64,000 bases of DNA, taken from positions 1,502 through 65,501 of the forward strand of contig JBKQMH010000151.1 of the NCBI GenBank assembly GCA_052146795.1, written 5' to 3'. The notes under the pieces are model-generated. The model ran no database searches. It saw nothing but the letters and a program-made list of their open reading frames with translations, and was not told where the DNA came from. A program made the position numbers and the translations under genes. Positions 38,263-63,025 of this stretch are shown in pieces (position 1 is the stretch's first letter; every line of letters begins with the position of its first letter). Source of the stretch: Verrucomicrobiia bacterium. GTDB taxonomy: Bacteria > Verrucomicrobiota > Verrucomicrobiia > Palsa-1439.

Positions 38263-38287
38263 GACGCTTCCTCCCGGCGTTGCCGCG

Positions 38288-39445: not shown

Positions 39446-39462
39446 AGCCGCAGAATGATTTA

Positions 39463-45309: not shown

Positions 45310-45324
45310 GCAGTGGACGTGCCA
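45310..45324 (-). promoter_or_regulatory. Candidate sigma-54 promoter, minus strand reads TGGCACGTCCACTGC
   Basis: TGGCACG-N4-CTGC with GG-N10-GC spacing, 30 nt upstream of the cytochrome ATG (GGAGG SD between). A sigma-54-dependent regulator is encoded immediately upstream. Confidence 0.5.
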
Positions 45325-45626: not shown

Positions 45627-47027
45627 TCAGCACTTCGCCGCGCTGAGTTCGCTGGTCGTCGCGGCCAGATACCCGTACTTGATCAACCGGCGACGTAACG
45701 CGTCGCGCTCGATCCCCAGCAATTCCGCCGCGTGACACTGGTTGGCGCCGGCGCGTTCCATCGCCTGGTAAATCAATTCGCGTTCCACCTCCGCCAGTGC
45801 CACACCACCGGGGGGCAATTGAATGAGGGAATGTCCATTCAACCGCGTGCCCAGCCGCAGCTCCGTCGGCAGGTGTTCGGGCAGCACCACCTCGGCTCGC
45901 TCGAGGATGACCAGCCGCTCGATAACGTTGCGCAACTCGCGCACGTTGCCCGGCCATGCGTACTGCTGCAGCATCGTGGCGGCTTCCGCCGAAAGTTTCT
46001 TGATTGGCCTGTTGAACTCCTCAGAAAACCGAGCGAGGTAATGTTCCGCCAGCAACGGGATGTCTCCCGCTTGTTCGCGCAAGGACGGCATCCGCAGCGA
46101 AATGACCTTGAGCCGATAGTACAAATCCTGTCGGAATTCTCCCTTGGCCACGGCCTCCTCAAGGTTCTTGTTGGTCGCGGCGATCACACGCACATCCACG
46201 GAGATGTTTTGCGTGCCTCCGACGCGTTGAAACTCTCGCGACTCCAACACCCGCAGCAATTTCGCCTGCAGCGCGGGTTTCATGTCACCGACCTCATCGA
46301 GCAACACCGTGCCGCCGTCCGCGAGTTCAAATAGCCCCCTCTTGGTATTCTTCGCGTCGGTGAACGCGCCGCGCTCATGTCCGAACAACTCGCTTTCGAT
46401 GAGCGCGTCCGGAATTGCCGAGCAGTTGATCCCCATGAACGGCTGATTGGCCCGCGCGCTGCCGAAATGAATCGCGCGCGCCGCCAACTCCTTGCCCGTC
46501 CCGTTCTCGCCGTCGATGAACACCGTCGTGGCGTCGCTCTCGCCGACCCGCGCAATCAACTCTCGCACCTGGCGCATCTGCGGACTCACCCCGACAAGGT
46601 TTTCCAAGCCGAACTTGCGGCGTTGCGCGCGGCGGATGCGCGTGACTTCCCGACGCAGTTTCAAGTCCTCGCGCGCCTTTTCCAGCGCCACGCGCACTTC
46701 GTCAAACTCGAACGGCTTGCACAGATAATTGTACGCGCCGAGCCGCACGCATTCGACGGCGCGCGCGATCGACGTTTCCGCGGTCAACATGATGACGGCG
46801 ATGTCGCGCTCCAGATTCCTGATCTCTTGCAGCACTTGTACGCCGTCGATTCCCGGCAATCGTAAATCCAGCAGCACCAGGTCGAAACCGTCCTCGCGGA
46901 TGAGGTTCAGTCCCTCCTCGCCCGTCGGCGCCGATTCGACCTCGTAGCCTTCGCGGCCCAGCTTTTGTTGAAGTGACCAACGTACGAGTTTCTCGTCGTC
47001 GATAATGAGTATCTTAGTTCTCGACAT
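45627..47027 (-). CDS. Sigma-54-dependent response regulator (NtrC family)
   Basis: Receiver (ILIIDDE), AAA+ sigma-54 activation domain (GESGTGKE-like FIDGENGTGKE, GAFTDA), C-terminal HTH. Confidence 0.9.
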   Translation of the reverse strand: MSRTKILIIDDEKLVRWSLQQKLGREGYEVESAPTGEEGLNLIREDGFDLVLLDLRLPGIDGVQVLQEIRNLERDIAVIMLTAETSIARAVECVRLGAYNYLCKPFEFDEVRVALEKAREDLKLRREVTRIRRAQRRKFGLENLVGVSPQMRQVRELIARVGESDATTVFIDGENGTGKELAARAIHFGSARANQPFMGINCSAIPDALIESELFGHERGAFTDAKNTKRGLFELADGGTVLLDEVGDMKPALQAKLLRVLESREFQRVGGTQNISVDVRVIAATNKNLEEAVAKGEFRQDLYYRLKVISLRMPSLREQAGDIPLLAEHYLARFSEEFNRPIKKLSAEAATMLQQYAWPGNVRELRNVIERLVILERAEVVLPEHLPTELRLGTRLNGHSLIQLPPGGVALAEVERELIYQAMERAGANQCHAAELLGIERDALRRRLIKYGYLAATTSELSAAKC

Positions 47028-48540
47028 GAGCGAATTCCTTCCGTGTTTCCATTCCGCCTGGCGACGCAATCATCTCGGGTTTGCAAACGGCCAACTCCAG
47101 GGTAATTGTCGTTCCTTTTCCCGGCTCGCTATCCACCGCGATGGTGCCGTGGTGCTTCTCAATGATCGTGCGGGTGATCGACAGTCCGAGGCCTGTGCCG
47201 CGATGTTTCGTGGTGAAAAATGGGGAGAAAATCTTGGCGAGATGCTCGCGCGCAATCCCAACTCCTGTGTCCCGCACCCGGATGCGGACAATGCCGCCGC
47301 CATCGCGCTTGGCTGATTCTGTGGAGACGGTGAGCGTCCCGCCGCCGGGCATGGCCTGAACGGCGTTAAGCAGGATGTTGAGCAGTGCCTGCTGCATTTG
47401 CCCCGGATCGGCGAAGATGTGCGGCAGATCGGCGGCCAACCGCTCCTCGATTTTGATATGAAACTTCTGGGCGTCGGGCCGTACCAGCGCGAGCATCGGC
47501 CGGATGAATCCGTGCACGTCGCAGGGCGCCATCTCCGGATCACGGAGCCGCGCGAATTCGAGAAGATCGTGCAGCGTGCGGTTGAGCCGGGTGATCTGGC
47601 GATGAATCTCAGCGACGATTTCGGCCCGCTGGCCGTTGAGGTTGTTCTCTTCCGATAACACCTCCACCGCCGCGCCGATTCCGGCAAGCGGATTACGAAT
47701 TTCGTGCGCGATGCCCGAGGCCAGCTCGCCGATCGATGCCAGCTTGCCGGCTTGCTGGATTTGCTTCTGATGCGATTCCTCAAGTTCCCGCGTGGCGTTG
47801 TCGAGGCTTTGCACCATCGCGTTAAAACCGCTGGCGAGTTCGCCGATTTCATCCCCGGTCTCGGTCACCGCTCGGGCGTCGAGGTCGCCCGTTTGCACTT
47901 TGCGCATCTGTTCGAGTACGCGGCTGACGGGCTGCGTGACGAGCCGCACAATGAGCAGCCACAGCACGATGCCGACCAGCACGAAAATCACCACCCCGTA
48001 CACGATCAGCAGATTGCGGTTGCTGGCGACGCTGGCCTCGGCGGGGGCGAGTGATTTCTCCACGACGATGGCGCCGATGACGGCGGATTTCGGATCGTGG
48101 CAACGCTGGCAACTCTCGCTGTTGAGCACCGGCCGCATCACCACGGAGAGCCGCTGGCCGTCCTCGACGCGGGTGCCCTGCAACACCTGATTTTCGGTGA
48201 ACAACTCCGGCGGCACCGACATCACCGCGCGTTGCACCTCCTGCGTGTCGGTCGAGAACACCACCGTGCCGTCGGGTTTGATGAGGCGTCCGCGCCAAAT
48301 CTCGTCCGCGCCCTTTAGCTTTTGCAGGAACCCCTGCACCTCTTCATGGCGTTCGCTGAGCATGACGCCGTTGAGGTACTCGTGGACGAGCGACGCGGCG
48401 ATCAGGTTTTGCGCCTGGGTGCGCTCGTGCCACCACGCGCTCTGCACGCGAATGACAAAGTACGTGTAGATCGCAATCACCACGGCAACCGTCACGCCGA
48501 CCGCAACCAACATTTTCGCGGTGAGGTTGCGTCTAAACAT
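47014..48540 (-). CDS. Sensor histidine kinase with periplasmic haem-c (CxxCH) sensor domain
   Basis: TM-periplasmic domain-TM-HAMP-HisKA (AHEIRNPL)-HATPase (GTGLGLSI). The periplasmic segment contains CQRCH (nt 48097..48111). Confidence 0.8.
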   Translation of the reverse strand: MFRRNLTAKMLVAVGVTVAVVIAIYTYFVIRVQSAWWHERTQAQNLIAASLVHEYLNGVMLSERHEEVQGFLQKLKGADEIWRGRLIKPDGTVVFSTDTQEVQRAVMSVPPELFTENQVLQGTRVEDGQRLSVVMRPVLNSESCQRCHDPKSAVIGAIVVEKSLAPAEASVASNRNLLIVYGVVIFVLVGIVLWLLIVRLVTQPVSRVLEQMRKVQTGDLDARAVTETGDEIGELASGFNAMVQSLDNATRELEESHQKQIQQAGKLASIGELASGIAHEIRNPLAGIGAAVEVLSEENNLNGQRAEIVAEIHRQITRLNRTLHDLLEFARLRDPEMAPCDVHGFIRPMLALVRPDAQKFHIKIEERLAADLPHIFADPGQMQQALLNILLNAVQAMPGGGTLTVSTESAKRDGGGIVRIRVRDTGVGIAREHLAKIFSPFFTTKHRGTGLGLSITRTIIEKHHGTIAVDSEPGKGTTITLELAVCKPEMIASPGGMETRKEFAHVEN

Positions 48541-49819
48541 GGCCGCTCGCCTCCATCGGGCCGATTACCCTCACATGCTCCGTCGCAGACGCGTGCGAGT
48601 GGCCGCCAATATCCGGATGCTCGAACAACGGCAGGTAACGCGCCGCCAACCCGAAGAGTACGACCCCAAACGAAAGCAGATTCAGTACGACGGTGATCTC
48701 AATCCATGACGGGAAGTAGTTCGAGTGGGTCGCCGGCAACAGGCCGATCCAGGCGACGTTGAGCCGATTCAGGTTAACCCCCAGGATGACGGGAATCGCC
48801 GCGGCAAACGCCCAGCGCCGACGGCCCGACCATCGCGTCTTCAGCACCACGAACAATGGCAGCGTCAGCAGCAGCATCTCCAGGGTGAACGTGAAACCCT
48901 GAAGCGGGCAGCGGAATATATACATCCACGCATTCCGCGCCGTGAGATCCGCGATGCGGAGAAACAGATAGAGAAACAGTAGCGGCGTCATCCCCTTGGC
49001 CAGCGACGTGAGCACGCGCGGTTCCAGCGGCTTGTGGAATATCCAGAACGACAAGGCGGACACGAAGATCGCCATCGCAAAACCAGAAATGAGCGCGCTA
49101 ATGAAGAACAGGATCGGCAGTAGCGGCGTATACCACAGCGGCAACAGCTTGGTGGGTAGAATGAGGAACAGTGAGCCGAGCGACGACTGGTGCAACGTCG
49201 AGAGGATTACGCCGCAAATGACAAAGGGGACGGTGATCGCGTGTACGGCACGTGACACGCGCGTCCAGCCCAGTTTATCGAGCAGGATCGGCGCGAACTC
49301 CACGGACAGCACGCCCGTGTAGAGCATGACGCACCAGGACACTTCAAACAGTACCGAGTGATGTTGCCAGTAGAAGATCGGTCGCCAGATTTGGTGGTAT
49401 CGACCGAGATCGACGAGCAACGCGCCGGAGGCCGACAGCATGTAGCCGAGATACGCAGCCAGAACCACCGGCCGAAGGATCGGGTAAAACGTGCGGATGC
49501 GAAAGATATACACCATGCACGCCGTGAGGAACCCGCCCGCCGCAAAGGCGATTCCGCAGACAACCAACGCTTTCCAGATGCCCCATGGAAATTGATCGGT
49601 AAGATTCGTCACCGCGCCGAGGCCCAGTGCATACCGTGAGGTGAACCCGTAACCTCCCAGACCCCAGAGCACGATCAGCAATGACCAGCCAAATACGCCC
49701 GACAGGTGCTTGGGAGTTTGACGGCCGGAGAGCAACCAGCAAGCGAACACCGCACCGCACATCATGACCAAGACGCCGATGACGCGGAACAATGCCAGGA
49801 TCCAGTTAAAATCGTTCAT
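48533..49819 (-). CDS. NrfD/PsrC-family integral membrane quinone-interacting subunit (module A)
   Basis: Start at MNDFNWIL. About 10 TM segments; paralog of 51574..52878 (DQFPWGIW, YWQHHSVLFEV). Confidence 0.7.
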   Translation of the reverse strand: MNDFNWILALFRVIGVLVMMCGAVFACWLLSGRQTPKHLSGVFGWSLLIVLWGLGGYGFTSRYALGLGAVTNLTDQFPWGIWKALVVCGIAFAAGGFLTACMVYIFRIRTFYPILRPVVLAAYLGYMLSASGALLVDLGRYHQIWRPIFYWQHHSVLFEVSWCVMLYTGVLSVEFAPILLDKLGWTRVSRAVHAITVPFVICGVILSTLHQSSLGSLFLILPTKLLPLWYTPLLPILFFISALISGFAMAIFVSALSFWIFHKPLEPRVLTSLAKGMTPLLFLYLFLRIADLTARNAWMYIFRCPLQGFTFTLEMLLLTLPLFVVLKTRWSGRRRWAFAAAIPVILGVNLNRLNVAWIGLLPATHSNYFPSWIEITVVLNLLSFGVVLFGLAARYLPLFEHPDIGGHSHASATEHVRVIGPMEASGHV

Positions 49820-50673
49820 GGCCGCTCCGTCGGGTTCCGTGTCCGCCAGCGAACCACCGCGCTCAGGACCAAGCCGACACCGATGACCACAAATGGCACC
49901 TTCGAAATGGCCTTCCACGTCAGCGATGGCAGCGGATCCTTTGGCAGGCCGCGCGGGAACCCGAGATCTTCCGGCGCGGTATCGGACAAGTACAACCACG
50001 ATGTGCCACCGGCAACGTCTTCGCCGTATAGCGACGTGTAGCGGTTCGGTTGCGTGTCCAGCCGGGCCTTCGCCTCCTGCAACAACTCGCGGCGTTTCCC
50101 AAACTTCAGCGTGACGGTCGGACACGCGGCGACGCAGGCCGGGGATTGGCCTTTCGCCTGACGGTCGGCGCAGAAATCACATTTGGCGACGCGCGGCATG
50201 AACGCGTTGTTCCACTCGTACTTCGGCACACCGAACGGACAGGCCAGAATGCAGTAGCGGCAGCCGATACAGATGCTCTCGTTGTAAACGACCGGCCCGC
50301 TCGCGGTCTTCTCCAATGCCCCGACGGGGCAGACCGACACACACGCCGGGTCCAGGCAGTGCATGCATTGCCGTTTCACCGGCTGTTTGGGTTTCGTGTT
50401 CCCGTCCCGGAAATCGATGAACGTCCGCGTGCGAAAACTCAGTTTGCCGTCGCCGGCGCCGTAACCAATTGCTTCGGTGGGAAGGGCATCGAAGCCCGCT
50501 CGTACCCGGCAGGCGTTCTCGCAGGCCCGGCAGCCGATGCAGCGCGTGAGGTCCACCAAGACGCCGGCCGATGCTGACGGCTCAACCGGCGATTCCGCGA
50601 GAAGGGCGCGAGCAGACGCGATCGTCAACGCGCCGGTCGCCGCGGTCTTGAAGAATTGTCGACGGGAAATCAT
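49816..50673 (-). CDS. Tat-exported 4x[4Fe-4S] ferredoxin subunit (NrfC/PsrB/HybA-like) with C-terminal TM anchor (module A)
   Basis: MISRRQFFK twin-arginine signal. Four Cys clusters (CIGCRACENAC, CMHCLDPACVSVCP, CIGCRYCILACP, CDFC...CVAACP). Confidence 0.85.
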   Translation of the reverse strand: MISRRQFFKTAATGALTIASARALLAESPVEPSASAGVLVDLTRCIGCRACENACRVRAGFDALPTEAIGYGAGDGKLSFRTRTFIDFRDGNTKPKQPVKRQCMHCLDPACVSVCPVGALEKTASGPVVYNESICIGCRYCILACPFGVPKYEWNNAFMPRVAKCDFCADRQAKGQSPACVAACPTVTLKFGKRRELLQEAKARLDTQPNRYTSLYGEDVAGGTSWLYLSDTAPEDLGFPRGLPKDPLPSLTWKAISKVPFVVIGVGLVLSAVVRWRTRNPTERP

Positions 50674-51587
50674 CGCGGCGGCTCCCCGTGTTTCTTTCGG
50701 CGGAAATGCGGCAACGCGACGCCCAGAAAAATGCCCAACAGGAACGACAGGCCGACCACGGGCGGAAACACGCGGCGGTTGGCCGCGAGTATCTCGCGCA
50801 ATTTGGCGGTTTCCGTTTCCAACTCAGTGAGACGCGCCTCGAGTTTTTCCGGTGCGACCGCTTTGAGTCGGTGGACCTCTTCTTCTAGCGTGGCGTTTTC
50901 GTGGCTCGCGTGCACCATATCGCGGTGGCAATTGGCGCAGGTCTCGGCACCGACGCCGAACGTGTGGCCGCGCACGCCGAGGCCGCGGGTCTTCATACCG
51001 ACGCCCTTCACCTCGGGCATGTGACAGCTCAGGCAGTGCAGGCCTTCAATCGCGTGGGTCGCATGGGAGAAGTCCTTGAGCCGTTCCGTGTGGCAGGTGC
51101 CGCACATTTGGTCGGGCTGGTCTTTGTGCAGTTGCATCCCATGCATCTTGTGGCAATCGAAACAGCGGATGTTCTTCTGGCCGTGCGCACTGACCCGCCA
51201 TTCGCCATAGGTAATGGCATGGCAGCTTTGGCACACTTCGGACGTGACGGGCAGCGTCAACTTCGATTTGTCCGGGTGATCGTCCTTCATGACGCCGTGG
51301 CAGGACTCGCAACTGACACCGTCATGCGAAACCTTGCCCGATTTCGGGTCGGACCGGCTGGTGTGGCAGACGAGGCATTCCCATTTCTTGCCCTCGGTCG
51401 TCCACTCGTTCAGGAACATGTCGTTTATCGTTTGGGCGTGGGGCGAGCCCTGCCAATCCTTCACCTCCTGCTCGTGGCACAGCGCACACCGCTCGGATTC
51501 TTTCTCTTCACCCTGTGCGCGCACGGCGGTCGGCACGAGTGCCAGCACGGCTGCAAGGACAATCACGGTTTGTCTAGGAAGACACAT
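50670..51587 (-). CDS. Octahaem cytochrome c with C-terminal TM anchor (module A)
   Basis: 8 CxxCH in ~250 aa; coiled-coil then hydrophobic helix at the C-terminus. Confidence 0.85.
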   Translation of the reverse strand: MCLPRQTVIVLAAVLALVPTAVRAQGEEKESERCALCHEQEVKDWQGSPHAQTINDMFLNEWTTEGKKWECLVCHTSRSDPKSGKVSHDGVSCESCHGVMKDDHPDKSKLTLPVTSEVCQSCHAITYGEWRVSAHGQKNIRCFDCHKMHGMQLHKDQPDQMCGTCHTERLKDFSHATHAIEGLHCLSCHMPEVKGVGMKTRGLGVRGHTFGVGAETCANCHRDMVHASHENATLEEEVHRLKAVAPEKLEARLTELETETAKLREILAANRRVFPPVVGLSFLLGIFLGVALPHFRRKKHGEPPR

Positions 51588-52878
51588 CTAGTGGACTCTC
51601 TTTCTCGTCTGCGACCTTCGATCCTGGTTCCGAAACTCCTTGTGGATGTTGCGGCTTCTTGCCGATGTCGGGATGCTCGAACAGGGGGAGGTAGCGCGCC
51701 GCCAACCCGAAACACACCACCCCCAGGGAAATCAGATTGAGCGTGACCACCAGTTCCTGCCACGAGGGCACATAAATGGCTTCCGCCGAGGGAAGCATGT
51801 GAAACCACGCGACGTTCAGACGATTCACAATCACCGCGGCCACCACGAGAGCCGCCGCCCAGAAAACGATCCGCGGCTGGCGAACCAATCGTGGACTCAG
51901 CAGAATAAAGGTGGGCACCAGCAGCAAAGTCATCTCCAGGAAAAAGGTGAAGGTTTGGAAGGGGAGCGGCGCCAGGTACACCCACTTGCCCCGCACCGTC
52001 ATGTCGATCACGCGGATGGTCAGCAACAGGAGGATCACCAGCGGAATCACCCGCGCCAGCGAGGTGATGATCGGCGCCTCCAGACTCCGCTGGAACGCCC
52101 GTGCGGAAAGGGTGGACTCCACAATCGTCATCGCCAGGCCTACGGCCACGGCGCTGATGAGAAAATACAGCGGCAGCAAGGGCGAATACGTGGTCGGCCA
52201 CAATTTCTCGGGCACGATCAGGAACAGCGCTCCCAGCGACGATTGGTGCAGCGTGGATAGAATGACGCCGGCAATTACCACCGGAATCGTAATCGAGTGG
52301 ACAAACCGCAGCGCGCGATGCCAATGAAACCTTTCCAACAGAAGCGGCAGGAACTCCACAGTGAGCACGATGTTGTACAACGTCACGCACCAGCCGACCT
52401 CGAACATCACCGAATGATGCTGCCAGTAAATCATCGGATGCCAGATGTTATACGGCCGGCCCAGATCGACCATCAGTCCCCCGACCACGAGCAGGTAGCC
52501 CAGATACGCCGTGAGCACCGCCGGCCGCAGGATCGGGTAGAATTTCCTCAGCCCAAAGATATACACCGCGCCGGCAGTCAAAAATCCGCCTGCGGACAAG
52601 GCGACACCGCTGAGCACATCGAACCCAATCCAGATGCCCCACGGAAACGTATCCGAAAGGTTCGTCATTGCGCCCAACCCGCCCGTAAACCGCGTCACGA
52701 CCGCCATGCCCCCCAGCGCCCAGAGAATCGGCAACAGCACCCACCACGCCAAGCCGAGGCTGACCTGCTGCGGTACTTTTCGGCCAGCCAGCAACCAGCA
52801 CGCACCCACTGCCAGCCCACCCATGACCAGCGCGGCGACCGCCTTGAGCAGAATCACCAGATAGACCGACTCAGACAT
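51574..52878 (-). CDS. NrfD/PsrC-family membrane subunit (module B)
   Basis: Paralog of 48533..49819. Confidence 0.7.
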   Translation of the reverse strand: MSESVYLVILLKAVAALVMGGLAVGACWLLAGRKVPQQVSLGLAWWVLLPILWALGGMAVVTRFTGGLGAMTNLSDTFPWGIWIGFDVLSGVALSAGGFLTAGAVYIFGLRKFYPILRPAVLTAYLGYLLVVGGLMVDLGRPYNIWHPMIYWQHHSVMFEVGWCVTLYNIVLTVEFLPLLLERFHWHRALRFVHSITIPVVIAGVILSTLHQSSLGALFLIVPEKLWPTTYSPLLPLYFLISAVAVGLAMTIVESTLSARAFQRSLEAPIITSLARVIPLVILLLLTIRVIDMTVRGKWVYLAPLPFQTFTFFLEMTLLLVPTFILLSPRLVRQPRIVFWAAALVVAAVIVNRLNVAWFHMLPSAEAIYVPSWQELVVTLNLISLGVVCFGLAARYLPLFEHPDIGKKPQHPQGVSEPGSKVADEKESPLDVSS

Positions 52879-53737
52879 GCACAAGCCTCCGGTTTCGCAA
52901 CCGGTAAATCCCGCTGAGCACCAGTGCCAGCGTGACCACCACGATCGGCACCTTCGAGAGCGCCTTCCACGTCAAGGATGGAAGGGCGACCGACGGCAGG
53001 TCAGTGCGAAACCCCAGTTGGTCCATGGGCACGTCCGAGAGGTAAATCCACGCAGTGCCGCCGACCACCTTGTCGCCGTAGATCGAGACGTAACGCTTGG
53101 GATTGGCCGATAACCGCAGCAGCGCTTCGCGCAGAATCTCCGGCCGCTTGCCAAACCTCAGTGTGCCGGTGGGGCACGCCGCCACGCACGCCGGCACCCG
53201 GCCGTCAGCCACGCGGTCGTCGCAGAAATCACACTTGCCCACGCGCGGCGTCACCCCCTCGTTCCATTCGTAGCGAGGTACGCTGAACGGGCAGGCAATC
53301 ATGCAGTAGCGGCACCCAATGCACCGCGACGCCTCATACACCACCGAGCCGCGCGGCGTCTTGTGCAACGCCGCCACTGGACAGGCCGAGACGCACGCTG
53401 CATCCAGACAGTGCATGCATTGTTTCTTGACGGAGAATCTGGTCTTGGCGGCTGGCTGACCGTGCGCCGTCCGAAAGTCCACAAACGTCCAGGTTGTGAA
53501 CGAGAGCCGACCTTCGCCGGGACCGTAGCCGAAACCCTCCGTTGGCAGGCCCGGCCGGTTCTGGCGCACCCGGCAGGCATTTTCACAGGCGCGGCAGCCG
53601 ATACAGCGGGTCAGGTCCACCAACACGCTGGATTGCTGGTCCGGATTTACCGGCGGTTCGTCGGCCGTGGCGCGCACCGGCAACAGTATCGCTCCCAACC
53701 CCGCCGCGCCCGTCGTGAGAAATCGGCGGCGCGACAT
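52871..53737 (-). CDS. Tat-exported 4x[4Fe-4S] ferredoxin subunit (module B)
   Basis: Starts MSRRRFLTTGAAGLG (ATG at 53735..53737). The 562-aa track ORF is an out-of-frame N-extension. Paralog of 49816..50673. Confidence 0.85.
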   Translation of the reverse strand: MSRRRFLTTGAAGLGAILLPVRATADEPPVNPDQQSSVLVDLTRCIGCRACENACRVRQNRPGLPTEGFGYGPGEGRLSFTTWTFVDFRTAHGQPAAKTRFSVKKQCMHCLDAACVSACPVAALHKTPRGSVVYEASRCIGCRYCMIACPFSVPRYEWNEGVTPRVGKCDFCDDRVADGRVPACVAACPTGTLRFGKRPEILREALLRLSANPKRYVSIYGDKVVGGTAWIYLSDVPMDQLGFRTDLPSVALPSLTWKALSKVPIVVVTLALVLSGIYRLRNRRLVHV

Positions 53738-53838
53738 TCCCCCGGGGTGGTCATTCTGAGCGCGGGGAAGAAGCTTTGGATCGCCTCCCTTGTGGGGATC
53801 TTCGCTTCGGTCAGGGTGAAAGACTGGAAAAGCGGCGT

Positions 53839-54759
53839 TCATTTCGACAGTCCCTCCCTCGTAGGTTTCCGACTGCGGCGATGGACCACGGCGTACTCGA
53901 TGGCCACGCCGAGACAAAAGGCCACAACCACGATTACGGAGAACACCCGTCGGTTGGCCCGCACCGCCGCGCGCAGTTGGTCGTTTTCCTTCCGCTCGTC
54001 GGTGACCTGTTTCTGCAGTGTTTCCGGAGTCATCTCCTTGAGGCGCTGCACCTCGCTCTCCAAGACGGCAATGTCGCTGCGGCTGTGCACCATTTCCTTG
54101 TGGCAAATGGCACAGGTCTCCGCGCCAACACTGAACGCGTGCCCGCGCGCGCCGGTCCCCTTGATCTTCAGCCCGGCGTTCATCACCTCCGGCATGTGGC
54201 AATCGATGCACTTCACGCCCTTGACGTGATGGGTCGCGTGCGAGTAGTCCTTCAACCGTTCCGTGTGGCAGGTGCCGCACATTTGGTCCGGGTCGTCCTT
54301 GCGCAGCTTCATCTCGTGCATCTTGTGGCAGTCGAAGCAGCGGATGTTCTTCTGGCCGTGACGGCTGATACGCCACTCGCCGTAGGTAATGCTGTGACAG
54401 GACTGACACGTCTCGGCGGTCACGGGCAACAGCTTCTTCACCTTGTCGGGATGGTCCGCAGTCGCCGGCCCGTGACAGGACTGGCAACTCACGCCGGCAT
54501 GAGAGAACGTGCCGGTCTTGCGGTCGTACTGGCTGGTGTGGCAGACGAGGCATTCCCACTTCTCACCTTCCTGGTCCCACTCGGCGAGAAATCGGCTGTT
54601 GATGGTGTGCGCGTGTGGCGAGTCCGTCCACTCTTTCGTTTCCTGCTCGTGGCAGAGGGCGCAGGTGTCGGATTCCTTTTCCTCGTCGGCCCCCCACACG
54701 GGCGCCAGTGGGACGAGCGTCACCAGCAACGCCGCAACCATCAATTCGGAGCGAGTCAT
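53839..54759 (-). CDS. Octahaem cytochrome c with C-terminal TM anchor (module B)
   Basis: Start at MTRSELMVAALL (signal peptide). 8 CxxCH. Paralog of 50670..51587. Confidence 0.85.
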   Translation of the reverse strand: MTRSELMVAALLVTLVPLAPVWGADEEKESDTCALCHEQETKEWTDSPHAHTINSRFLAEWDQEGEKWECLVCHTSQYDRKTGTFSHAGVSCQSCHGPATADHPDKVKKLLPVTAETCQSCHSITYGEWRISRHGQKNIRCFDCHKMHEMKLRKDDPDQMCGTCHTERLKDYSHATHHVKGVKCIDCHMPEVMNAGLKIKGTGARGHAFSVGAETCAICHKEMVHSRSDIAVLESEVQRLKEMTPETLQKQVTDERKENDQLRAAVRANRRVFSVIVVVAFCLGVAIEYAVVHRRSRKPTREGLSK

Positions 54760-56726
54760 CGCGGGGTCTTTCCTTTCTCCAGCTCCGCGGCCGGAGCTTC
54801 GGGTTTGGGTTTCGGCGCGCACGGGTCAGGGGCATGCGCCCCCTTCTTGCCGATCAACCAGGCGGGGTTCATCGGGTACTCCTTCGGATCGAAGATGACC
54901 CAGTAGAAATGCCAGACCAGAATTGCCAGGGTCGCCAAGACCGCCTCGTAGTAATGGATCACCTGGGCCACATCGTGCCACACCTTGGGGACCAATCGCA
55001 GCACCGTGTTGGTGAAAATCAGCATCGCCCCTGTAATAATCATCACGAACGAGCCCCAGACCAGCGCCCAATACTCGGCCTTTTCGGCGTAGTTCCAGCG
55101 ACGGTGCGGCGGCGGCGTCTGACGCAGGCCGAGGTTGAACGCCAACTGGGCAGCGGCGTCCCGCAGATCGTGCGGCACCATCCATAACGTCCACAAGTAG
55201 CTGCGGCCCCGGCGGGTGCCGACCAGGGTGAACAGATGCACCACGAAGAACACCGCGAACGTCCAGCCGCAGACGCGATGGATCATCCCCCGAATGTAGG
55301 CCCCCGTCTCCCCGAGCGCACGGAACGGCCAACTCCAACCCGCGTCGGGAAACTTGTGCGCGAATCCCGTATAGGCCAGCAGGATGAACAGCACCGTCAG
55401 CAGCCAATGTTGGGCGCGCACCAGTCGCGTCAAACGCGGTTCTGCGTGCGCGTCCGCGTTCACGGCGCGGACGTGGGCGCGGGTTTTGCGCAGATAGTCG
55501 AGCAGATTGAAGGTGGACATGCCGCCGATGGTCAGCAGAATCAAGCCGATGTAGAGCCGGGAGATGAAATTCACCAGCCACGGTTTGCCTTCCGCGGCCC
55601 CCGGCGGCGCGTGAATGCGGAAGAACTCCGCGCTGAGCCGATTGCCAATGCCAGGATGACACTTCCCGCAAGTCTCCGGCAGGTTCTTCGGATTAATTGT
55701 CGAGAGCGGATCGCTCGCGGGCAGGATGTCATGGATGCCATGACACGAGGCACAATTGGCCGCGGTCAGGTTGCCGCCTTGCAAGGCCAATCCGTGAAAG
55801 CTTTGCACATACGTCGTAAATACGTTTGGCGGCAGACGATACTGTGTCACGATCCGCTGCGCGGCGTGACACTGACCGCAGGTCTCGGGGATGTTGGCGG
55901 GCGACACGCGGGAGGTGGCCAGTTTGACGGCTTGGATCGAGTGTTCGCCATGACAATCGGTGCAGACGGGCGCGTCGCGGACGCCGCTCTTGACCGCTCG
56001 GCCGTGAACGCTACGGAGGTAGGTTTGTTCAACGTTTTCGTGGCATTTGCCGCAGGTGCTGGGGACATTCTGCCAGTAGAGCTTCGACGCGGGATTGGTC
56101 GACCGATGCAAGTTGTGGGAGCCGTGGCAATCCGTGCACACCGCGGCGTTGATTTCACCTTTTTGCAGCAGCGCGATCCCGTGGACGCTCGAATCGTAGC
56201 TCACGATCGGCGTGCGCTGACGGAGATGAAACTTCTCCATTTCCGCCGTGTTGGCGTGACAGCGCCCGCAGGTCTGGGGAAGATTGGTGCGGTACACCGG
56301 CGAGGCGGGGTTGCGATAGTTCAGCAAGTAGTGGTTGTTGCCGTGGCAGTCCTTGCAGGAGGCCGCCTCCGGCACGCCCTTGTGGATCGCCTGGCCGTGA
56401 TCGCTGTTCAAATAAATTTCCGTCTCGACCCGGTGGCACTGGCTGCAACTAACCGGCTTGGCCTGGAAATTGTCCGGATGCGGCACGTCGGTGATGTCCG
56501 AGTGGCAACTCGTGCACAGGTTCTTGGCGTGGATCGATCCGTCGAATTTGCCCTCGTCCACAAACAGCGAGACCGCCTGGCCGGTGGCGTTGGTCGTCAC
56601 CAAATTCCGGTCGCTGTGGCACGCAAAACAGTCGGAGTTGTCGATCGCCGAGGCGCTCGGTGAGGTCGCGGGCAGTGCCGCGACCAGCATCATCGAGAGC
56701 ACGACCGAACGGATCGGCGTCCTCAT
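54756..56726 (-). CDS. Undecahaem cytochrome c fused to C-terminal dihaem-b-type (FdnI/HydC-like) membrane domain (CbcL-like), copy 1
   Basis: Start MRTPIRSVVLSMMLVA (ATG 56724..56726). 11 CxxCH. C-terminal ~250 aa has 4-5 TM helices with His-bearing motifs. Confidence 0.8.
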   Translation of the reverse strand: MRTPIRSVVLSMMLVAALPATSPSASAIDNSDCFACHSDRNLVTTNATGQAVSLFVDEGKFDGSIHAKNLCTSCHSDITDVPHPDNFQAKPVSCSQCHRVETEIYLNSDHGQAIHKGVPEAASCKDCHGNNHYLLNYRNPASPVYRTNLPQTCGRCHANTAEMEKFHLRQRTPIVSYDSSVHGIALLQKGEINAAVCTDCHGSHNLHRSTNPASKLYWQNVPSTCGKCHENVEQTYLRSVHGRAVKSGVRDAPVCTDCHGEHSIQAVKLATSRVSPANIPETCGQCHAAQRIVTQYRLPPNVFTTYVQSFHGLALQGGNLTAANCASCHGIHDILPASDPLSTINPKNLPETCGKCHPGIGNRLSAEFFRIHAPPGAAEGKPWLVNFISRLYIGLILLTIGGMSTFNLLDYLRKTRAHVRAVNADAHAEPRLTRLVRAQHWLLTVLFILLAYTGFAHKFPDAGWSWPFRALGETGAYIRGMIHRVCGWTFAVFFVVHLFTLVGTRRGRSYLWTLWMVPHDLRDAAAQLAFNLGLRQTPPPHRRWNYAEKAEYWALVWGSFVMIITGAMLIFTNTVLRLVPKVWHDVAQVIHYYEAVLATLAILVWHFYWVIFDPKEYPMNPAWLIGKKGAHAPDPCAPKPKPEAPAAELEKGKTPR

Positions 56727-58930
56727 GGCTGTTCTCCGACGTTGGCGGGTTGCATCGCCGCTGGGGGCGGCGCGCCGGGCCGCCCGGTTTCGCGCGAGTG
56801 CAACCGCGATGCCATCGCATACACGATCAGCGCCAATAGCACCAACCCCAGACCGAAGAAGACGTAGCCGAACGAGCGGTGGATGCTCCGCCATTTCTGC
56901 CACTCGTCCTTGACGCGGTAATCGTCGAGATGCTTCTCGCCCTCGAGCCGGTCGTACCACCGCTTCCGCTCGTGCAGCATTTCCGTCTTCGAGATCCGGC
57001 CGGAGAAAATCACCGTGTCCATCGGGAATTTTTCCAGCCGGAAGTGCGTGTTGAAGAAGTGGAACGTGAAGATGAACCCGGCCGCCAGCAACGCCTCGTC
57101 GGAATGGATGATGAGCGCGATATTGATGACCCAGCCCGGCATGAACCGCGTGAAGAACTGCGGAAACCACATGACCAGCCCCGACAGCCCGATGGCGAAA
57201 ACTCCCCAAAATACCGCCAGGTAGTCGAACTTCTCCCAGTACGTCCACCGGTCAAACTGCGGCCGCGGTCCGTTGCCGAAGAACCATTTCTGGTGCGCGA
57301 TGAAATCCCGCCAGTCCTGCAGTGTGATCAGCATCGAGTCGGGACCGAACACGACCTTCAGCGCCCGTTTCAATTGGAACTTGCCGGTTTGCGGGTCGCG
57401 GAAACCCGGTCGCCGCGCCCAGATCGTGTTCAGCAACTCGATCACGTGCAGCGAAAAACAGACGAACAGGACGAACGCCGCAAAGTGATGGAACGTCCGC
57501 GCCACCGCCGCCCCGCCCAAGAGGTTGAAAATGCTCTTGGCCCAGTCCGTGTAATAGAATTTCAACGGCATCCCGGTCATGACCAGCAACAGGAAACTGG
57601 TCACGAGCATGAAGTGCAGCATCCGCTCGAACGGCAGGAACCGCGTGAACCATTCGTCGCCAGTTTGCGCGCTGATTTTGGCTTCGCGGAACGATTTCGA
57701 GTCGTGGCGATACAGGTAGCCGGAGCGGAAAAACCAGAACACCGTGTGCACCCCGAACACGCCAAACGTCCCGATCAACAGCGAGGTCATCACCATAAAC
57801 GTCAGGTGCAACGCCGGATAATGCTTCGCGTCCAGCGGATTGGCGTGCGGGATGTACTTGGTAAAACTGACGGTTGCCTTGGCGTGACATTGCCGGCAGG
57901 TCTCAACGATGTGCGCGGGCGACAAACGCGACTGCGGATCGGAGGGCGGCAGGATGTCGTGATACCCGTGACAATCGTAACAGGCGGCCACCTCGGGTGC
58001 GACGTTCGGTTTTCCCAGTGCCATCGCCTTGCCGTGGTAGGTCTCACGATAGTAGGCGAGCCGGTCTTTATGACACCCGCCGCACCGCTCATCGCTCATC
58101 AGTTTCTTGAAATCCCCGCCCTCGGGCGACTCGATTTGGTGCGCCGTGTGGCAATCACTGCAGACCGGAGCCCGCGGGTCGCCCTTGGCGAGCAATTGGC
58201 CGTGGATGCTGCTCTCGTACACCTTTTCCACACTGACGTGACACTTCCCGCACGTCTTGGCGATATTGGCATGATTGATCGGGGAACTGCGATCAACCGC
58301 CCGCTTGATGGTGTGGACGCCGTGGCAATCATTGCAGGACGGCGCGACGATCAGCCCCATTTTTAACAAGGCCCGCCCGTGGATGCTCTCGGCGTATTGC
58401 ACCGGCGCCTCCGGGTACTTCATGCGGTACTCGCTCGTCAGCCCGGGGTTGCTGTGGCATTTCGCGCAGGTGTGCGGAAGATTCAGTTTGAAGACCGGCG
58501 AATCCGGGTTTTTGACAGCCAGAATGTCGTGGGTGCCGTGGCAGTCCTTGCACGTCGGCGCACCTGACGCTCCCATCGCGCGGCTCACCCCGTGGATGCT
58601 GGTGGCGTACTCCTTGCCAACGACCTCGTGGCAACCCGCGCAGGATACCGACGGCGGGTTCGCGTCATGCGGCAATTCCGTAATGCCCGTATGACAACTC
58701 GTACAGAGGTTCTTGCCGTGGATGGACGCCGCGAATTGCTGATCGTCCACAAACAGCGAAACCGCCTGGCCGGCGGCGTTCGTCTTGACGAGCGACTTGT
58801 CGGAGTGGCAGGCGAAACAGTCAGCGTTGTCGATGGCCCGTGCGCGCGCCACGGGCCACAAACACAGACTCAGCAGGCACACCCATGCTGCCCGCCATTT
58901 GTTACGACCTCGCATAACTGTGGTACCCAC
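56723..58930 (-). CDS. Undecahaem cytochrome c fused to dihaem-b-type membrane domain (CbcL-like), copy 2
   Basis: Signal peptide. 11 CxxCH, colinear with copy 1 (both begin IDNxDCFACHSD). C-terminal polytopic His-rich domain. Start at 58930 or 58915. Confidence 0.8.
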   Translation of the reverse strand: MGTTVMRGRNKWRAAWVCLLSLCLWPVARARAIDNADCFACHSDKSLVKTNAAGQAVSLFVDDQQFAASIHGKNLCTSCHTGITELPHDANPPSVSCAGCHEVVGKEYATSIHGVSRAMGASGAPTCKDCHGTHDILAVKNPDSPVFKLNLPHTCAKCHSNPGLTSEYRMKYPEAPVQYAESIHGRALLKMGLIVAPSCNDCHGVHTIKRAVDRSSPINHANIAKTCGKCHVSVEKVYESSIHGQLLAKGDPRAPVCSDCHTAHQIESPEGGDFKKLMSDERCGGCHKDRLAYYRETYHGKAMALGKPNVAPEVAACYDCHGYHDILPPSDPQSRLSPAHIVETCRQCHAKATVSFTKYIPHANPLDAKHYPALHLTFMVMTSLLIGTFGVFGVHTVFWFFRSGYLYRHDSKSFREAKISAQTGDEWFTRFLPFERMLHFMLVTSFLLLVMTGMPLKFYYTDWAKSIFNLLGGAAVARTFHHFAAFVLFVCFSLHVIELLNTIWARRPGFRDPQTGKFQLKRALKVVFGPDSMLITLQDWRDFIAHQKWFFGNGPRPQFDRWTYWEKFDYLAVFWGVFAIGLSGLVMWFPQFFTRFMPGWVINIALIIHSDEALLAAGFIFTFHFFNTHFRLEKFPMDTVIFSGRISKTEMLHERKRWYDRLEGEKHLDDYRVKDEWQKWRSIHRSFGYVFFGLGLVLLALIVYAMASRLHSRETGRPGAPPPAAMQPANVGEQP

Positions 58931-59699
58931 TCAGCAGGAAGTTCACGCCGTAGTAGGTGAAAATGACCGAGGCAAAGCCGACGATCGAAATCCAGGCGGC
59001 GCGTTTGCCTTTCCAGCCCCGCATGAAGCGGCAGTGCAGGAATACGGCGTAGATGAACCACGTGATCAGCGACCAGGTTTCCTTCGGGTCCCAGCTCCAG
59101 TACGTGCCCCACGCGGAATTCGCCCAGACCGCGCCCGAGATGATGCCGACCGTCAGAAACAGAAAACCAAACGAGATGGTCTTGGCCGTCGCGGCATCCA
59201 GTGCCTCGGTAATGTCGGCTTGTGCCTTGCTGCCAGTGCGCGACGCGATCAAATAGCCAGCGCCCGTCAGCGCGGCGACAGCAAACCCGCCGTAGCCGAG
59301 GAAGGCTGTGAACACATGGAAGGTAAGCCAGTTACTGCGGAGCGCCGGCATGAGGGGTTGGATTTTCGTCTCAAACGTGCTCGCGTACGCCAGCGTGACC
59401 ACCGCCAGCAACGCAGTCGCCGCGCCGAGGACGGGGATGCGGTGGCGAACCTGCAGGGCGAGATACACGACCACTATCGCCCACGTAAACAGCACCATCG
59501 ATTCGAACATGTTGCTGAACGGCGCCCGACCGGCTGCGAACCAGCGCACGGCCATGTACACCGTTTGCGCCGCCACGCCCGCCGCGAGGAACACGGTCGC
59601 GCTCGAGGCGAACCATCCCTTTTTCGAGAACAGGTTAGCTGCCGAGAACAGTAGCGCCGTGAGATACCCAGCCAGGCTGAGATTGAATGCCCACGCCAT
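58902..59699 (-). CDS. ccsA: Cytochrome c biogenesis protein CcsA (system II)
   Basis: WGxxWxWD-type tryptophan-rich motif (AWGTYWSWDPKETWSLITW), 8 TM. The annotated start overlaps the hemA 3' end by 65 nt, so the true start may be downstream. Confidence 0.8.
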   Translation of the reverse strand: MAWAFNLSLAGYLTALLFSAANLFSKKGWFASSATVFLAAGVAAQTVYMAVRWFAAGRAPFSNMFESMVLFTWAIVVVYLALQVRHRIPVLGAATALLAVVTLAYASTFETKIQPLMPALRSNWLTFHVFTAFLGYGGFAVAALTGAGYLIASRTGSKAQADITEALDAATAKTISFGFLFLTVGIISGAVWANSAWGTYWSWDPKETWSLITWFIYAVFLHCRFMRGWKGKRAAWISIVGFASVIFTYYGVNFLLSGYHSYARS

Positions 59700-60720
59700 A
59701 GAGCCGCTCCTTTTCGAGGTTAAGTTTGGTCATCAAGGCCATCGCCCGCGTATTGACGATCTGGTCGCAGGCGGCCAGTTCCTGCTCTCGCGACCGCACG
59801 TTTTCACGCACGAGCGATTCGAGGTCGTCGATGTTGTAGAGGTACACGCCGTCGAGGCGTTGCACGTCGGGGTCGACGTTGCGCGGAACAGAAATATCGA
59901 TGAGGAACAACGGGCGGTTGCGCCGGTGTTTCATCAACGCCTCCACGTCGGCCCGATGCAATAGCGTTTTCGGGCAGCCCGTCGAGGCGACGACAATGTC
60001 GGCATCGGCCATCGCGGACAGGCAGGATTCAAACTGCACCGCCTGCCCGCCGAATTCGTTCGCCAGTTCGACGGCACGGTCGAAGGAACGGTTGGAGACG
60101 AGGATGGATCGGGCGCCCTTCTTGGCAAGGTGGCGGACGCAGGCTTCGCCCATCTGGCCCGCGCCGATAATGATCACGGTTTGCTTCGACAGGTCATGGC
60201 GGAAAATCTTTTCGGCCAATTCGACCGCCACGCTGCCCACGGAGGTCGCGCCGCGCCCGATGCTTGTGCGAGCGCGGATTTCCTTGGCTGCCTGAAAGGT
60301 TTTTTGGAAAACGCGGTTCAGCACGCGGCCAGTCAGCCGTGCCTCTTGGGCAATGTCATAGGCTTTTTTCACCTGGCCGGTGATTTCCGTCTCACCGATC
60401 ACCATCGAGTCGAGCCCGCCCGCAACGCGAAACAGGTGGCGCAGCGCCCCGACATCTTCATGTACGTACACGTGCGAGCCGTAATCACGCGGTTCCGCGC
60501 TGAGCAATCGGAAGAGTGAATCGATGCGGCCGGTCACCCGCGCTGTCGTGCCGTAAATCTCCACACGATTACAGGTCGAGAGCAGGACGATTTCATCCAG
60601 GTCGCCGCAAATCTTCAAGCGGCATGCCTGGCAGACCAACTTGGACGGTTTGACCGCGAGTTGCTCGCGCAATTCGACCGGCGCCGTCTTGTAGCTCACT
60701 CCCGCCACAAAGAGTGTCAT
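59635..60720 (-). CDS. hemA: Glutamyl-tRNA reductase
   Basis: TCNRVEIY catalytic motif, GAGQMGE NADPH-binding. 361 aa, so the C-terminal dimerisation region is shorter than typical. Confidence 0.85.
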   Translation of the reverse strand: MTLFVAGVSYKTAPVELREQLAVKPSKLVCQACRLKICGDLDEIVLLSTCNRVEIYGTTARVTGRIDSLFRLLSAEPRDYGSHVYVHEDVGALRHLFRVAGGLDSMVIGETEITGQVKKAYDIAQEARLTGRVLNRVFQKTFQAAKEIRARTSIGRGATSVGSVAVELAEKIFRHDLSKQTVIIIGAGQMGEACVRHLAKKGARSILVSNRSFDRAVELANEFGGQAVQFESCLSAMADADIVVASTGCPKTLLHRADVEALMKHRRNRPLFLIDISVPRNVDPDVQRLDGVYLYNIDDLESLVRENVRSREQELAACDQIVNTRAMALMTKLNLEKERLYGVGIQSQPGWVSHGATVLGS

Positions 60721-61961: not shown

Positions 61962-61976
61962 GCAGTGGCCTTGCCA
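61962..61976 (-). promoter_or_regulatory. Candidate sigma-54 promoter, minus strand reads TGGCAAGGCCACTGC
   Basis: 13/15 identical to the element at 45310..45324, 31 nt upstream of the resB ATG. Confidence 0.45.
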
Positions 61977-62800: not shown

Positions 62801-63025
62801 AGATAGATTGTCGTACAGATGTATGTTAACAACTTACGTGCCATTCATTGTGACCACAATCGCAACAACCTTCAAGCAAGAATGTTCGGTTGCGCACTGA
62901 ATTGGGTCAGGACTCGTGTCCCATCCATGGATGCGCGATTTCGCGCCCCCCGGTGCGCGATTTGGCGCAGCGATTGTCGTTAGCCCCGTGCTGCGGCCTG
63001 CGGTGGTTCCCCGCCCCACGTCACG

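Follow-up and report, generated by a model that had tools for sequence, protein, structure and literature searches.

Proteins of the CbcL/MtrH/MtoC family, which combine 3 to 23 CxxCH motifs with about six transmembrane (TM) helices of the HydC/FdnI type, include four catalogued verrucomicrobial members (Zhong & Shi 2018, PMC6295460); the Geobacter member CbcL (GSU0274) has nine haems, and identity within the family goes down to about 29%. A second kind of inner-membrane module is built on NrfD-like subunits, of which the HybB/HmcC/NhcC group has 10 TM helices and a 4x[4Fe-4S] partner (PMC8076601). In extracellular electron transfer (EET), quinol dehydrogenases composed of a cytochrome c, an iron-sulfur (FeS) protein and a membrane subunit have inner-membrane precedents, acting or proposed, in NetBCD of Aeromonas hydrophila (PMC8805035) and Cbc4 (CbcSTU) of Geobacter sulfurreducens (10.1101/2025.04.14.648717), each supplying an EET conduit in the outer membrane. 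In 2017, He et al. (mSphere) described a verrucomicrobial cluster of porin and multihaem cytochrome (MHC) genes in metagenome-assembled genomes (MAGs) from humic anoxic habitats, and left its inner-membrane step open (“ET in IM”) (PMC5615132). Here we describe a locus in which both kinds of inner-membrane module adjoin such a conduit, found in a 64,000-nucleotide stretch of an uncultured soil or peat Verrucomicrobiia bacterium (assembly GCA_052146795.1, contig JBKQMH010000151.1, positions 1,502 to 65,501), hereafter the window.

Between positions 48533 and 58915, eight packed co-directional genes on the minus strand are transcribed in the order cb1-cb2-cyt2-fes2-nrfD2-cyt1-fes1-nrfD1, that is, two fusions of a cytochrome c to a cytochrome b domain followed by two triplets of octahaem cytochrome c, FeS protein and NrfD-like membrane protein (Table 1). 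The parts are of known kinds, with no new protein type among them; what is conserved yet undescribed is that, within an EET locus, a CbcL-type fusion is paired with an octahaem-FeS-NrfD module. One strain carries both old isoforms of the triplet after cassette recombination, and this combination is uncommon. What we say of function throughout is inferred from sequence.

A preliminary description of this DNA had reported two colinear triplets behind two c/b fusions, with overlaps between most genes, and all eight open reading frames (ORFs) lie on the minus strand as it described. Their junctions overlap by 4 to 14 nt, the longest being that of nrfD2 with cyt1 (14 nt), and only cyt2/fes2 differs according to the start codon chosen: an ATG at 53842 produces the same ATGA overlap with cyt2 as at the other junctions, removes an apparent 101-nt gap, and is the choice made by the Prokaryotic Genome Annotation Pipeline (PGAP) in a second assembly of the same population (L037, see below). 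The fusion part had been drawn to 58930, where the ORF does begin with a GTG, but the ATG at 58915 gives cb1 a better signal peptide. The array had further been counted as 12 co-directional genes; the shared direction stands, but the count is too low, since the array comprises at least 18 genes, from the cytochrome b gene at the window edge (63997) to the end of the porin-like gene (39655).

Table 1. Features of the cytochrome locus in the window (coordinates are window positions; functional descriptions are predictions).
Feature	Coordinates	Strand	Description
cb1	56723-58915	minus	730 aa; Sec signal, periplasmic domain with 11 CxxCH, C-terminal FdnI/HydC-type dihaem b membrane domain; CbcL/MtoC-like
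cb2	54756-56726	minus	656 aa; second 11-haem c/dihaem b fusion, CxxCH part after signal peptide
cyt2	53839-54759	minus	type-2 octahaem c; Sec signal, 8 bis-His haem sites, C-terminal coiled-coil helix and TM anchor
fes2	52871-53842 (or start 53737, MSRRRF)	minus	type-2 4x[4Fe-4S] protein exported by twin-arginine translocation (Tat), C-terminal TM helix
nrfD2	51574-52878	minus	type-2 NrfD-like haem-free membrane subunit, HybB/HmcC/NhcC group, about 10-11 hydrophobic segments
cyt1	50670-51587	minus	type-1 octahaem c, 8 CxxCH; type carried by most related genomes
fes1	49816-50673	minus	type-1 Tat 4x[4Fe-4S] protein, RRxFxK motif, 16 Cys, C-terminal TM helix
nrfD1	48533-49819	minus	type-1 NrfD-like membrane subunit
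Recombination tract	49800-56700		identity drop versus L033 over cb2, cyt1 and fes1; includes triplet 2
Cytochrome b/b6	63026 to window edge 63997 (truncated)	minus	Rieske/cytochrome b complex continuing beyond the window
4-haem cytochrome c	62195-62800	minus	with cytochrome b/b6, part of the Rieske/cytochrome b complex
Sigma-54-type -24/-12 element TGGCAAGGCCACTGC	61962-61976	minus	45 nt upstream of resB
resB-hemA-ccsA	resB 60717-61931, hemA 59635-60720, ccsA 58902-59699	minus	System II cytochrome c maturation and glutamyl-tRNA reductase, operon head
Sensor histidine kinase	47014-48540	minus	periplasmic sensor domain (weak Mcp40H-20-type match) with one CxxCH; overlaps nrfD1 by 8 nt
NtrC-type sigma-54 enhancer-binding response regulator	45627-47027	minus	Response_reg, Sigma54_activat (230 bits), HTH_8
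Sigma-54-type -24/-12 element TGGCACGTCCACTGC	45310-45324	minus	about 30 nt upstream of the outer cytochrome gene
9-haem MtrC-like surface cytochrome (OMC895)	42593-45280	minus	9 CxxCH, MtrC-like domain matches, PKD-like domain
8-haem periplasmic cytochrome (pc268)	41675-42481	minus	7 CxxCH and 1 CxxxxCH
Porin-like protein (u670)	39655-41667	minus	670 aa, signal peptide, C-terminal Phe, no Pfam match

The two fusions share with the CbcL/MtrH/MtoC family an N-terminal multihaem c domain joined to a C-terminal HydC/FdnI-type b domain with conserved histidines, as well as a position next to an EET conduit. Their earlier designation as CbcL-like is supported by the Ni_hydr_CYTB domain (PF01292; 58.2 bits for cb2 and 40.8 bits for cb1, gathering score 30.1), by the 11 CxxCH motifs and by a six-TM layout like that of the published verrucomicrobial homologues Oter_2603 (from Opitutus terrae), PAW67162.1 and OQB93798.1, whose 11 CxxCH and six TM helices are placed almost as they are in cb1 (PMC6295460 Table S2). 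A crude hydropathy scan of the membrane domains gave 5 to 6 hydrophobic segments, their FdnI-type matches in NCBIfam stayed below the cut-off, and a search of Protein Data Bank (PDB) sequences with cb2 returned only weak haem-motif matches. Judged by haem and TM layout, cb1 belongs to the catalogued subclass as an ordinary member, and cb2 is a diverged paralogue; databases contain more than 5,000 relatives of cb1. Unlike CbcL, the fusions of the window are two tandem, diverged copies (34% identity), one of which is consistently coupled to an octahaem-FeS-NrfD triplet.

For the triplets, the preliminary description had named a multihaem cytochrome c, a Tat-exported FeS protein and an NrfD-like protein, and these assignments stand by Pfam and motifs. 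Hidden Markov model searches of the NrfD, FeS, cytochrome b and multihaem c families, which it had proposed as a check, gave matches that were all above the Pfam gathering thresholds: 61.0 and 61.7 bits for nrfD1 and nrfD2 with NrfD (PF03916, gathering score 25.8), 80.7 and 81.6 bits for fes1 and fes2 with Fer4_11 (PF13247), and multihaem c families for all four cytochromes, the cytochrome c3/c7 families in the case of cb1. The equivalog models of NCBIfam place the proteins more finely. For the FeS proteins the best matches are HmcB (NF045715; 248 and 280 bits, the latter for fes2, cut-off 420) and then HybA (NF008134; 204-217 bits, 204 for fes2, cut-off 263), while the NrfC model (TIGR03149) gives 90-92 bits against a cut-off of 378. 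For the membrane subunits, which have 9 to 11 hydrophobic segments and no CxxCH, they are HmcC (NF045714; 277 bits, and 315 for nrfD2, cut-off 550) and HybB (NF008133; 265 bits, and 280 for nrfD2, cut-off 450), while the NrfD model (TIGR03148, cut-off 348) gives 19 bits or no match. By these scores, the nrfD proteins are related to HmcC and HybB yet are not the same protein. In PDB sequences, fes2 matches FdnH (1kqf_B, E 2e-37), and the same search returned no solved relative of nrfD2.

The octahaem cytochromes have a cleavable-type N-terminal signal and one C-terminal TM helix. They fit the DmsE/MtrA decahaem model (TIGR03508; 49-52 bits, cut-off 192) better than NrfB, but depart from that family, whose members are soluble periplasmic proteins inserted in a porin, in having eight haems rather than ten and a C-terminal membrane anchor, and their likeness to MtrA/DmsE in sequence is one of local haem-motif spacing. 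Cytochrom_NNT gave them a sole match of 17 bits, below threshold. The PDB sequence search with cyt2 returned a weak haem-motif match (E 1.5e-7) to chain 6r2q_A, which we take to be MtrA; the molecule name in the match table differs. Among 1.84 billion cluster representatives, a profile search recovered 119 proteins related to the octahaem at E<=1e-30, so the family is modest in size.

Thus composed, the triplets most resemble NhcABCD and HmcABC(DEF) of Desulfovibrio and HybA-HybB of Escherichia coli hydrogenase 2 (Hyd-2), with which they share a Tat-exported, C-anchored 4x[4Fe-4S] protein and a 10-helix, haem-free NrfD-like subunit; as in Nhc and Hmc, the periplasmic partner is a multihaem cytochrome c, where Hyd-2 has a hydrogenase. 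The differences are that NhcA and HmcA are c3-type cytochromes, whereas the octahaem here is MtrA/DmsE-like with a membrane anchor of its own, that the array has neither NhcD nor HmcDEF, that it stands in an EET context and not one of sulfate respiration, and that the probable direction of reaction, quinol oxidation, would be opposite to that of Nhc, Hmc and Hyd-2. With NetBCD and Cbc4 the triplets have in common the set of cytochrome c, FeS protein and membrane subunit. NetBCD is NrfBCD-like, whereas the triplets score low on the NrfC and NrfD models and have an 8-haem cytochrome in place of an NrfB-like pentahaem. The match to the Geobacter Cbc complexes in the preliminary description holds for the architecture but not for homology, since CbcS of Cbc4 is an N-anchored NapC/NirT-family tetrahaem protein, the cytochrome here is a C-anchored octahaem, and the FeS and NrfD proteins are nearer to Hmc and Hyb. 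On these comparisons, the triplet is Nhc/Hmc/HybAB-like, and a functional analogue of NetBCD and Cbc4 but a member of neither. OhcBAC of Desulfovibrio vulgaris also unites an octahaem, an FeS protein and a membrane subunit under a sigma-54 enhancer-binding protein; Ohc was considered as the closest system, but its membrane subunit OhcC has been described as carrying haem b, unlike a haem-free NrfD-like subunit, and it was downgraded on that ground.

Cofactor ligands are strongly conserved in alignments of 35-38 sequences per family, which include duplicate assemblies of the window's own population. All 16 cysteines of the FeS proteins are invariant, as many as four [4Fe-4S] clusters would need, and in the octahaem proteins all eight CxxCH motifs and eight distal histidines are conserved, fitting eight bis-His c haems. 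The cb membrane domain has four invariant histidines (His434/476/490/604 in cb1, His440/483/497/591 in cb2) and one that is 97% conserved (His619 and His606, respectively) among 35 sequences, a pattern that fits two b haems.

The two triplets are clearly paralogous, as had been proposed and as pairwise alignment (BLASTP) bears out: cyt1 and cyt2 are 60% identical (E 2e-137), fes1 and fes2 60% (E 5e-123), nrfD1 and nrfD2 53% (E 1e-144), and cb1 and cb2 34% (E 4e-115). The preliminary description had allowed that the copies might be a recent assembly artefact with 100% identity; at the DNA level the paralogues are only 65-72% identical, and synonymous divergence (dS) between the triplet paralogues is 1.3-1.5, with synonymous sites near saturation. 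An assembly artefact or a recent duplication is ruled out by this DNA identity together with the presence of the arrangement in three assemblies.

In neighbour-joining trees of cyt and nrfD, two deep clades separate type 1 from type 2, and blastp assigned each fes orthologue to one of the types. Type 1 is that of most Verrucomicrobiia; type 2 comprises the window, L035/L036, two MAGs labelled “Brocadiia” (L004/L005) and a Victivallales MAG (L023). Both triplets have orthologues of their own type in other genomes at 75-84% identity; for triplet 2 of the window, identity to the type-2 orthologues in these genomes is 75-86%, well above its identity to triplet 1. The fusions likewise fall into separate clades, and the cb1-cb2 tandem pair recurs in L002, L033 and L035. 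The ratio of nonsynonymous to synonymous divergence (dN/dS) against orthologues is 0.06-0.19 for all eight genes (0.08-0.11 for cb2, 0.07-0.11 for cyt1), all of which are under purifying selection. The two triplets are, then, two ancient isoforms and not recent in-situ duplicates. Of the earlier wording “tandemly duplicated”, the side-by-side paralogous triplets remain; duplication in place does not, given the deep clades, the occurrence of each type alone in the same slot elsewhere and the recombined cassette described below.

A scan of one genome per species gave 31 loci, to which contig look-ups added more, for about 35 related loci overall. In about 20 Verrucomicrobiia genomes the common order is cytochrome b, 4-haem c, resB, hemA, ccsA, cb2, cyt8 (the octahaem gene), FeS and NrfD, followed by a histidine kinase, a sigma-54 response regulator, a 9-haem outer cytochrome, an 8-haem periplasmic cytochrome and a porin-like protein. 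Each of these genomes holds one cb2 and one triplet, usually of type 1. In the same slot, L035 and L036 have cb1 besides cb2, and their one triplet is of type 2. Among the approximately 35 loci, both triplets are found only in the window's population, that is, in the window, L037 (GCA_052915825.1) and L038 (GCA_052144815.1); in the latter two the double-triplet order was assembled independently, L038 being 99.6% identical to the window over 14.3 kb. The doubling of both module types had been called unusual, and occurring in one population it is indeed uncommon. The same cannot be said of the neighbouring ccsA-hemA-resB, whose adjacency had also been thought unusual and proves to be the rule in the clade: it is conserved in more than 15 species-level genomes, with a conserved sigma-54-type promoter before resB. 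The operon encodes about 40 c-haem sites, and about 60 with the downstream cytochromes, so that maturation genes adjoining the array make sense. Upstream of the window's edge, L037 has a Rieske gene and a further multihaem gene.

The fusion directly before the triplet is cb2 in nearly all related genomes, and at about 22 loci cb2 runs into the triplet with 4-nt overlaps. This arrangement would suit a single supercomplex of cb2 with the octahaem, FeS and NrfD proteins that has two quinone sites on opposite membrane faces and acts as a redox loop or as a “gearbox” of variable stoichiometry; in the window's strain it would then exist in two versions with cb subunits in common. The association recurs in other forms in distant lineages, where a PF01292 cytochrome b stands beside the triplet, fused or split, before or after it: L040 has a gene with a cytochrome b domain before the triplet, and in L042 the triplet is followed by a 16-haem cytochrome c and a separate Ni_hydr_CYTB protein. 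Both Hmc and DsrMKJOP join NrfD-like and dihaem-b subunits (PMC8076601), and cb2, cyt and FeS genes were exchanged together in the recombination tract of the window, a co-transfer that physical linkage explains equally well. On the other side, a triplet occurs with no cb-type gene in the DNA examined in L043 (6.4 kb) and L023 (10 kb each side), a cb1-cb2 pair occurs without a triplet in L002, and of the window's two cb genes, set against two triplets, cb1 is not the triplet-associated type. The comparative data give some support for a functional link between fusion and triplet, each of which also occurs alone, and we regard a supercomplex as rather improbable.

More specific, and in our opinion a long shot, is the idea that the CbcL-like fusion and the triplet are halves of one undescribed complex that combines an NrfD quinol site on the positive (P) side of the membrane with a dihaem-b quinone site on the negative (N) side, a layout otherwise known only from Hmc and DsrMKJOP (PMC8076601). 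If it were true, the version here would be without a cytoplasmic subunit, and quinone could cycle in a loop inside the complex, or its proton-to-electron stoichiometry could shift with the potential of the acceptor. The cassettes of type 1 and type 2 would then be exchangeable periplasmic “heads” that retune the complex, and the window's strain, expressing both through one redox-sensing sigma-54 circuit, would amount to a natural version with two gears.

The distant loci show further cytochromes around the triplet. In L040 and L042 the triplets adjoin 13- to 17-haem cytochromes with NapC/NirT-type matches, and the L040 triplet also adjoins a Rieske/cytochrome b complex, echoing the bc-complex neighbourhood of the window. 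A Gemmatimonadota MAG (L032) has at 3199-6670 one open frame that matches both the FeS and the NrfD models, possibly a fusion or two genes; it is followed by a 13-haem cytochrome and lies a few kb upstream of a separate cyt8-FeS-NrfD triplet.

The origin of the double array can be read against the closest genome, L033. DNA identity to L033 is 97-100% from the window edge through cb1, falls to 71-88% across cb2, cyt1 and fes1, and is 95-98% from nrfD1 onward, nrfD1 itself being 98% identical to its counterpart. L033 has no triplet 2, which in the window accounts for an extra 3.3 kb (~51532-54834). Simple insertion of triplet 2 into an L033-like haplotype was rejected, since cb2, cyt1 and fes1 on either side of it also reach only about 80% identity with L033, which means that a larger tract must have been exchanged. 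Against another related genome, L009, dS is 0.85-0.95 for cyt1 and fes1 and 0.39 for nrfD1, a contrast that points to different histories rather than to rates alone. From the near-identical flanks, the diverged tract and the lack of triplet 2 in L033, the simplest reading is that a diverged cassette of the periplasm-facing components cb2, cyt and FeS, here carrying the type-2 triplet, came in by homologous exchange. The nrfD2/cyt1 junction was searched for a remnant of the cb2 3' end as a recombination scar, and none was found there. A second hot spot of diversification or cassette exchange is the outer cytochrome gene (42593-45280), whose product is 76% identical in protein sequence to that of L033, compared with 97-100% for its neighbours.

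Such a history invites a neutral explanation, in which the second triplet is a transient or selectively neutral by-product of cassette recombination in a hypervariable locus and is functionally redundant. The restriction of both triplets to one population among about 35 loci fits this, as does the divergence of the cb2-cyt-FeS tract and the outer cytochrome (~76-82% identity) between strains that are otherwise 97-100% identical. The cofactor ligands, however, are intact in both triplets, the new junction is tightly coupled in translation through the 14-nt overlap of nrfD2 with cyt1, and the arrangement holds in all three assemblies. What dN/dS captures is the long-term constraint on each type, not selection since the merger, so the neutral explanation keeps some weight; we consider it doubtful, though a serious candidate.

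Downstream of the array, the outer cytochrome, the 8-haem cytochrome and the porin-like protein form a putative outer-membrane conduit. Like the cluster of He et al. (2017), it combines a porin-like gene with a periplasmic cytochrome bearing eight haem sites and an extracellular multihaem cytochrome; beyond that cluster, it is linked here with the cb and octahaem-FeS-NrfD genes, with a two-component system that has a haem sensor, and with two promoters of the sigma-54 type.

Transcription of the locus seems to depend on sigma-54. The CxxCH of the sensor kinase is conserved in 23 of 23 orthologues and suggests a covalently bound haem c that would sense the periplasmic redox state, and the kinase stop codon overlaps the ATG of the regulator (47027). 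Of 17 sequences examined, the window among them, 15 have the element TGGCAAGGCCACTGCT before resB as an identical 16-mer at -33 to -46, including genomes whose proteins are only 60-75% identical. At the equivalent site before the outer cytochrome gene, about 17 related loci have TGGCAY-N5-YTGC, with TGGCAC in all but L035. Where the resB-first arrangement is missing (L004, L005 and L029), the same kind of element stands directly before cb2. Only the two sites that are both intergenic and conserved across loci were retained; weaker -24/-12 candidates precede the 4-haem c gene (62829-62843) and the first of three radical S-adenosylmethionine (SAM) genes (39463-39477). The haem c kinase and the enhancer-binding regulator of the same operon would probably turn on the whole set, which would include haem synthesis and cytochrome maturation, according to the periplasmic redox state. 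Sigma-54 control has precedents for an inner-membrane cytochrome module in Geobacter (BccR/CbcBA) and for Ohc in Desulfovibrio (through DVU3142).

Taken together, we favour with moderate confidence the reading that the array is the inner-membrane part of a conserved verrucomicrobial EET locus, in which alternative quinol:periplasmic-cytochrome oxidoreductases, old isoforms merged by recombination, feed a porin-cytochrome conduit. In cb1 and cb2, the FdnI-type b domain would link a quinone site with the 11-haem periplasmic domain and move electrons through the membrane between the two. In the triplets, the NrfD-like subunit would oxidise quinol near the outer face, the Tat-exported, tail-anchored FeS protein would relay the electrons through its four clusters, and the tail-anchored octahaem, as an MtrA-like wire, would pass them into the periplasm. 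Menaquinol is the most probable substrate of both kinds of module, and the acceptors would be the 8-haem periplasmic cytochrome, the porin and the 9-haem surface cytochrome in turn, with Fe(III) or humic substances as likely external acceptors. By analogy with a reversed formate dehydrogenase-N, the cb route would release protons on the cytoplasmic side and conserve less energy, and would therefore suit low-potential acceptors, which CbcL has been argued to serve in Geobacter. The two types of module may have different redox tuning or prefer different partners; the preliminary description had proposed potential-tuned isoforms or, alternatively, a larger supercomplex, and both are hypotheses.

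Electron direction, quinone specificity and partner cytochromes are predicted features of this scheme, and the flow could also be the reverse: the modules would then be periplasmic-cytochrome:quinone reductases that import electrons into the quinone pool from Fe(II), reduced humics, a syntrophic partner or periplasmic oxidation of H2 or formate, with the Rieske/cytochrome b complex and terminal oxidases as the sink. The top NCBIfam matches, HmcB/HmcC and HybA/HybB, fit such a role, and PMC8076601 counts Nhc, Qrc and Hyd-2 among the quinone reductases; CbcL/MtrH/MtoC proteins occur in Fe(III) reducers and in Fe(II) oxidisers with no distinguishing sequence feature (PMC6295460); and a Rieske/cytochrome b complex is co-located, while a gene fusing a cytochrome bd-like domain to a cytochrome c also lies in the window. 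Outward transfer is favoured instead by the habitats of the related MAGs (anoxic peat, palsa and humic bog) and by the original interpretation of the porin-MHC cluster (PMC5615132), and the haem synthesis and maturation capacity of the operon says nothing on direction. On balance, import of electrons seems to us unlikely, though far from negligible.

Several points weigh against the outward scheme that we favour. The organisms with the locus are all MAGs, known from sequence. The best-scoring characterised relatives of the FeS and NrfD proteins (HybAB of Hyd-2, Hmc, Nhc and Qrc) serve physiologically as quinone reductases or carry electrons inward, and MtoC homologues occur in Fe(II) oxidisers (PMC6295460), so that sequence alone leaves the direction unfixed. 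Most relatives manage with one triplet, and the second may be redundant. Matches to the sigma-54 consensus number 64 across the window against about 84 expected, no excess over chance; the motifs are consensus matches for whose function only position and conservation argue. An AlphaFold2 model of cyt2, built from a 22-sequence alignment, has a predicted local distance difference test (pLDDT) score of 52, and only its C-terminal helix (213-296) is confident.

Verrucomicrobiia of this kind are abundant in peat, in permafrost-thaw and humic soils and in lakes, habitats in which respiration of Fe(III) and humics competes with methanogenesis. For the blank inner-membrane step of their EET, the locus supplies candidates, a CbcL/MtoC-type fusion and an Nhc/Hmc-like module with an anchored octahaem, together with a likely circuit of haem-sensing kinase, sigma-54 activator and two conserved promoters. 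It also presents a case in which periplasm-facing components are swapped as cassettes between otherwise near-identical strains, and the double-isoform strain is a natural comparison for potential-tuned isoforms such as ImcH, CbcL and CbcBA in Geobacter.

Other genes of the window border on the locus or lie further away. The porin gene is followed immediately downstream, on the minus strand, by a run of three radical SAM genes (35678-39481), of which one encodes a SPASM domain; radical SAM/SPASM genes also stand beside a cb1 homologue in an unrelated locus (L001), and the proteins could be maturases for a peptide or cofactor tied to the cytochrome locus. A FeoB ferrous-iron transporter gene (33068-35401, minus) adjoins the EET locus, consistent with iron handling. 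The bd-like fusion mentioned above (28684-30195, plus) encodes 503 aa, with an N-terminal part like cytochrome bd subunit I (partial, 44 bits) and a C-terminal cbb3-type monohaem c, an unusual combination. Two paralogous large tetratricopeptide repeat proteins are encoded on the plus strand at 7020-8945 and 12459-14456, the second also having a PMT_2 glycosyltransferase-like N-terminus, with a PKD-domain gene on the opposite strand between them. An ordinary resistance-nodulation-division efflux operon (outer membrane factor, AcrB-type pump, RraA-like protein and membrane fusion protein) lies at 16920-23310 on the minus strand, and a two-component pair of the PhoB/OmpR type follows it at 23318-25506.

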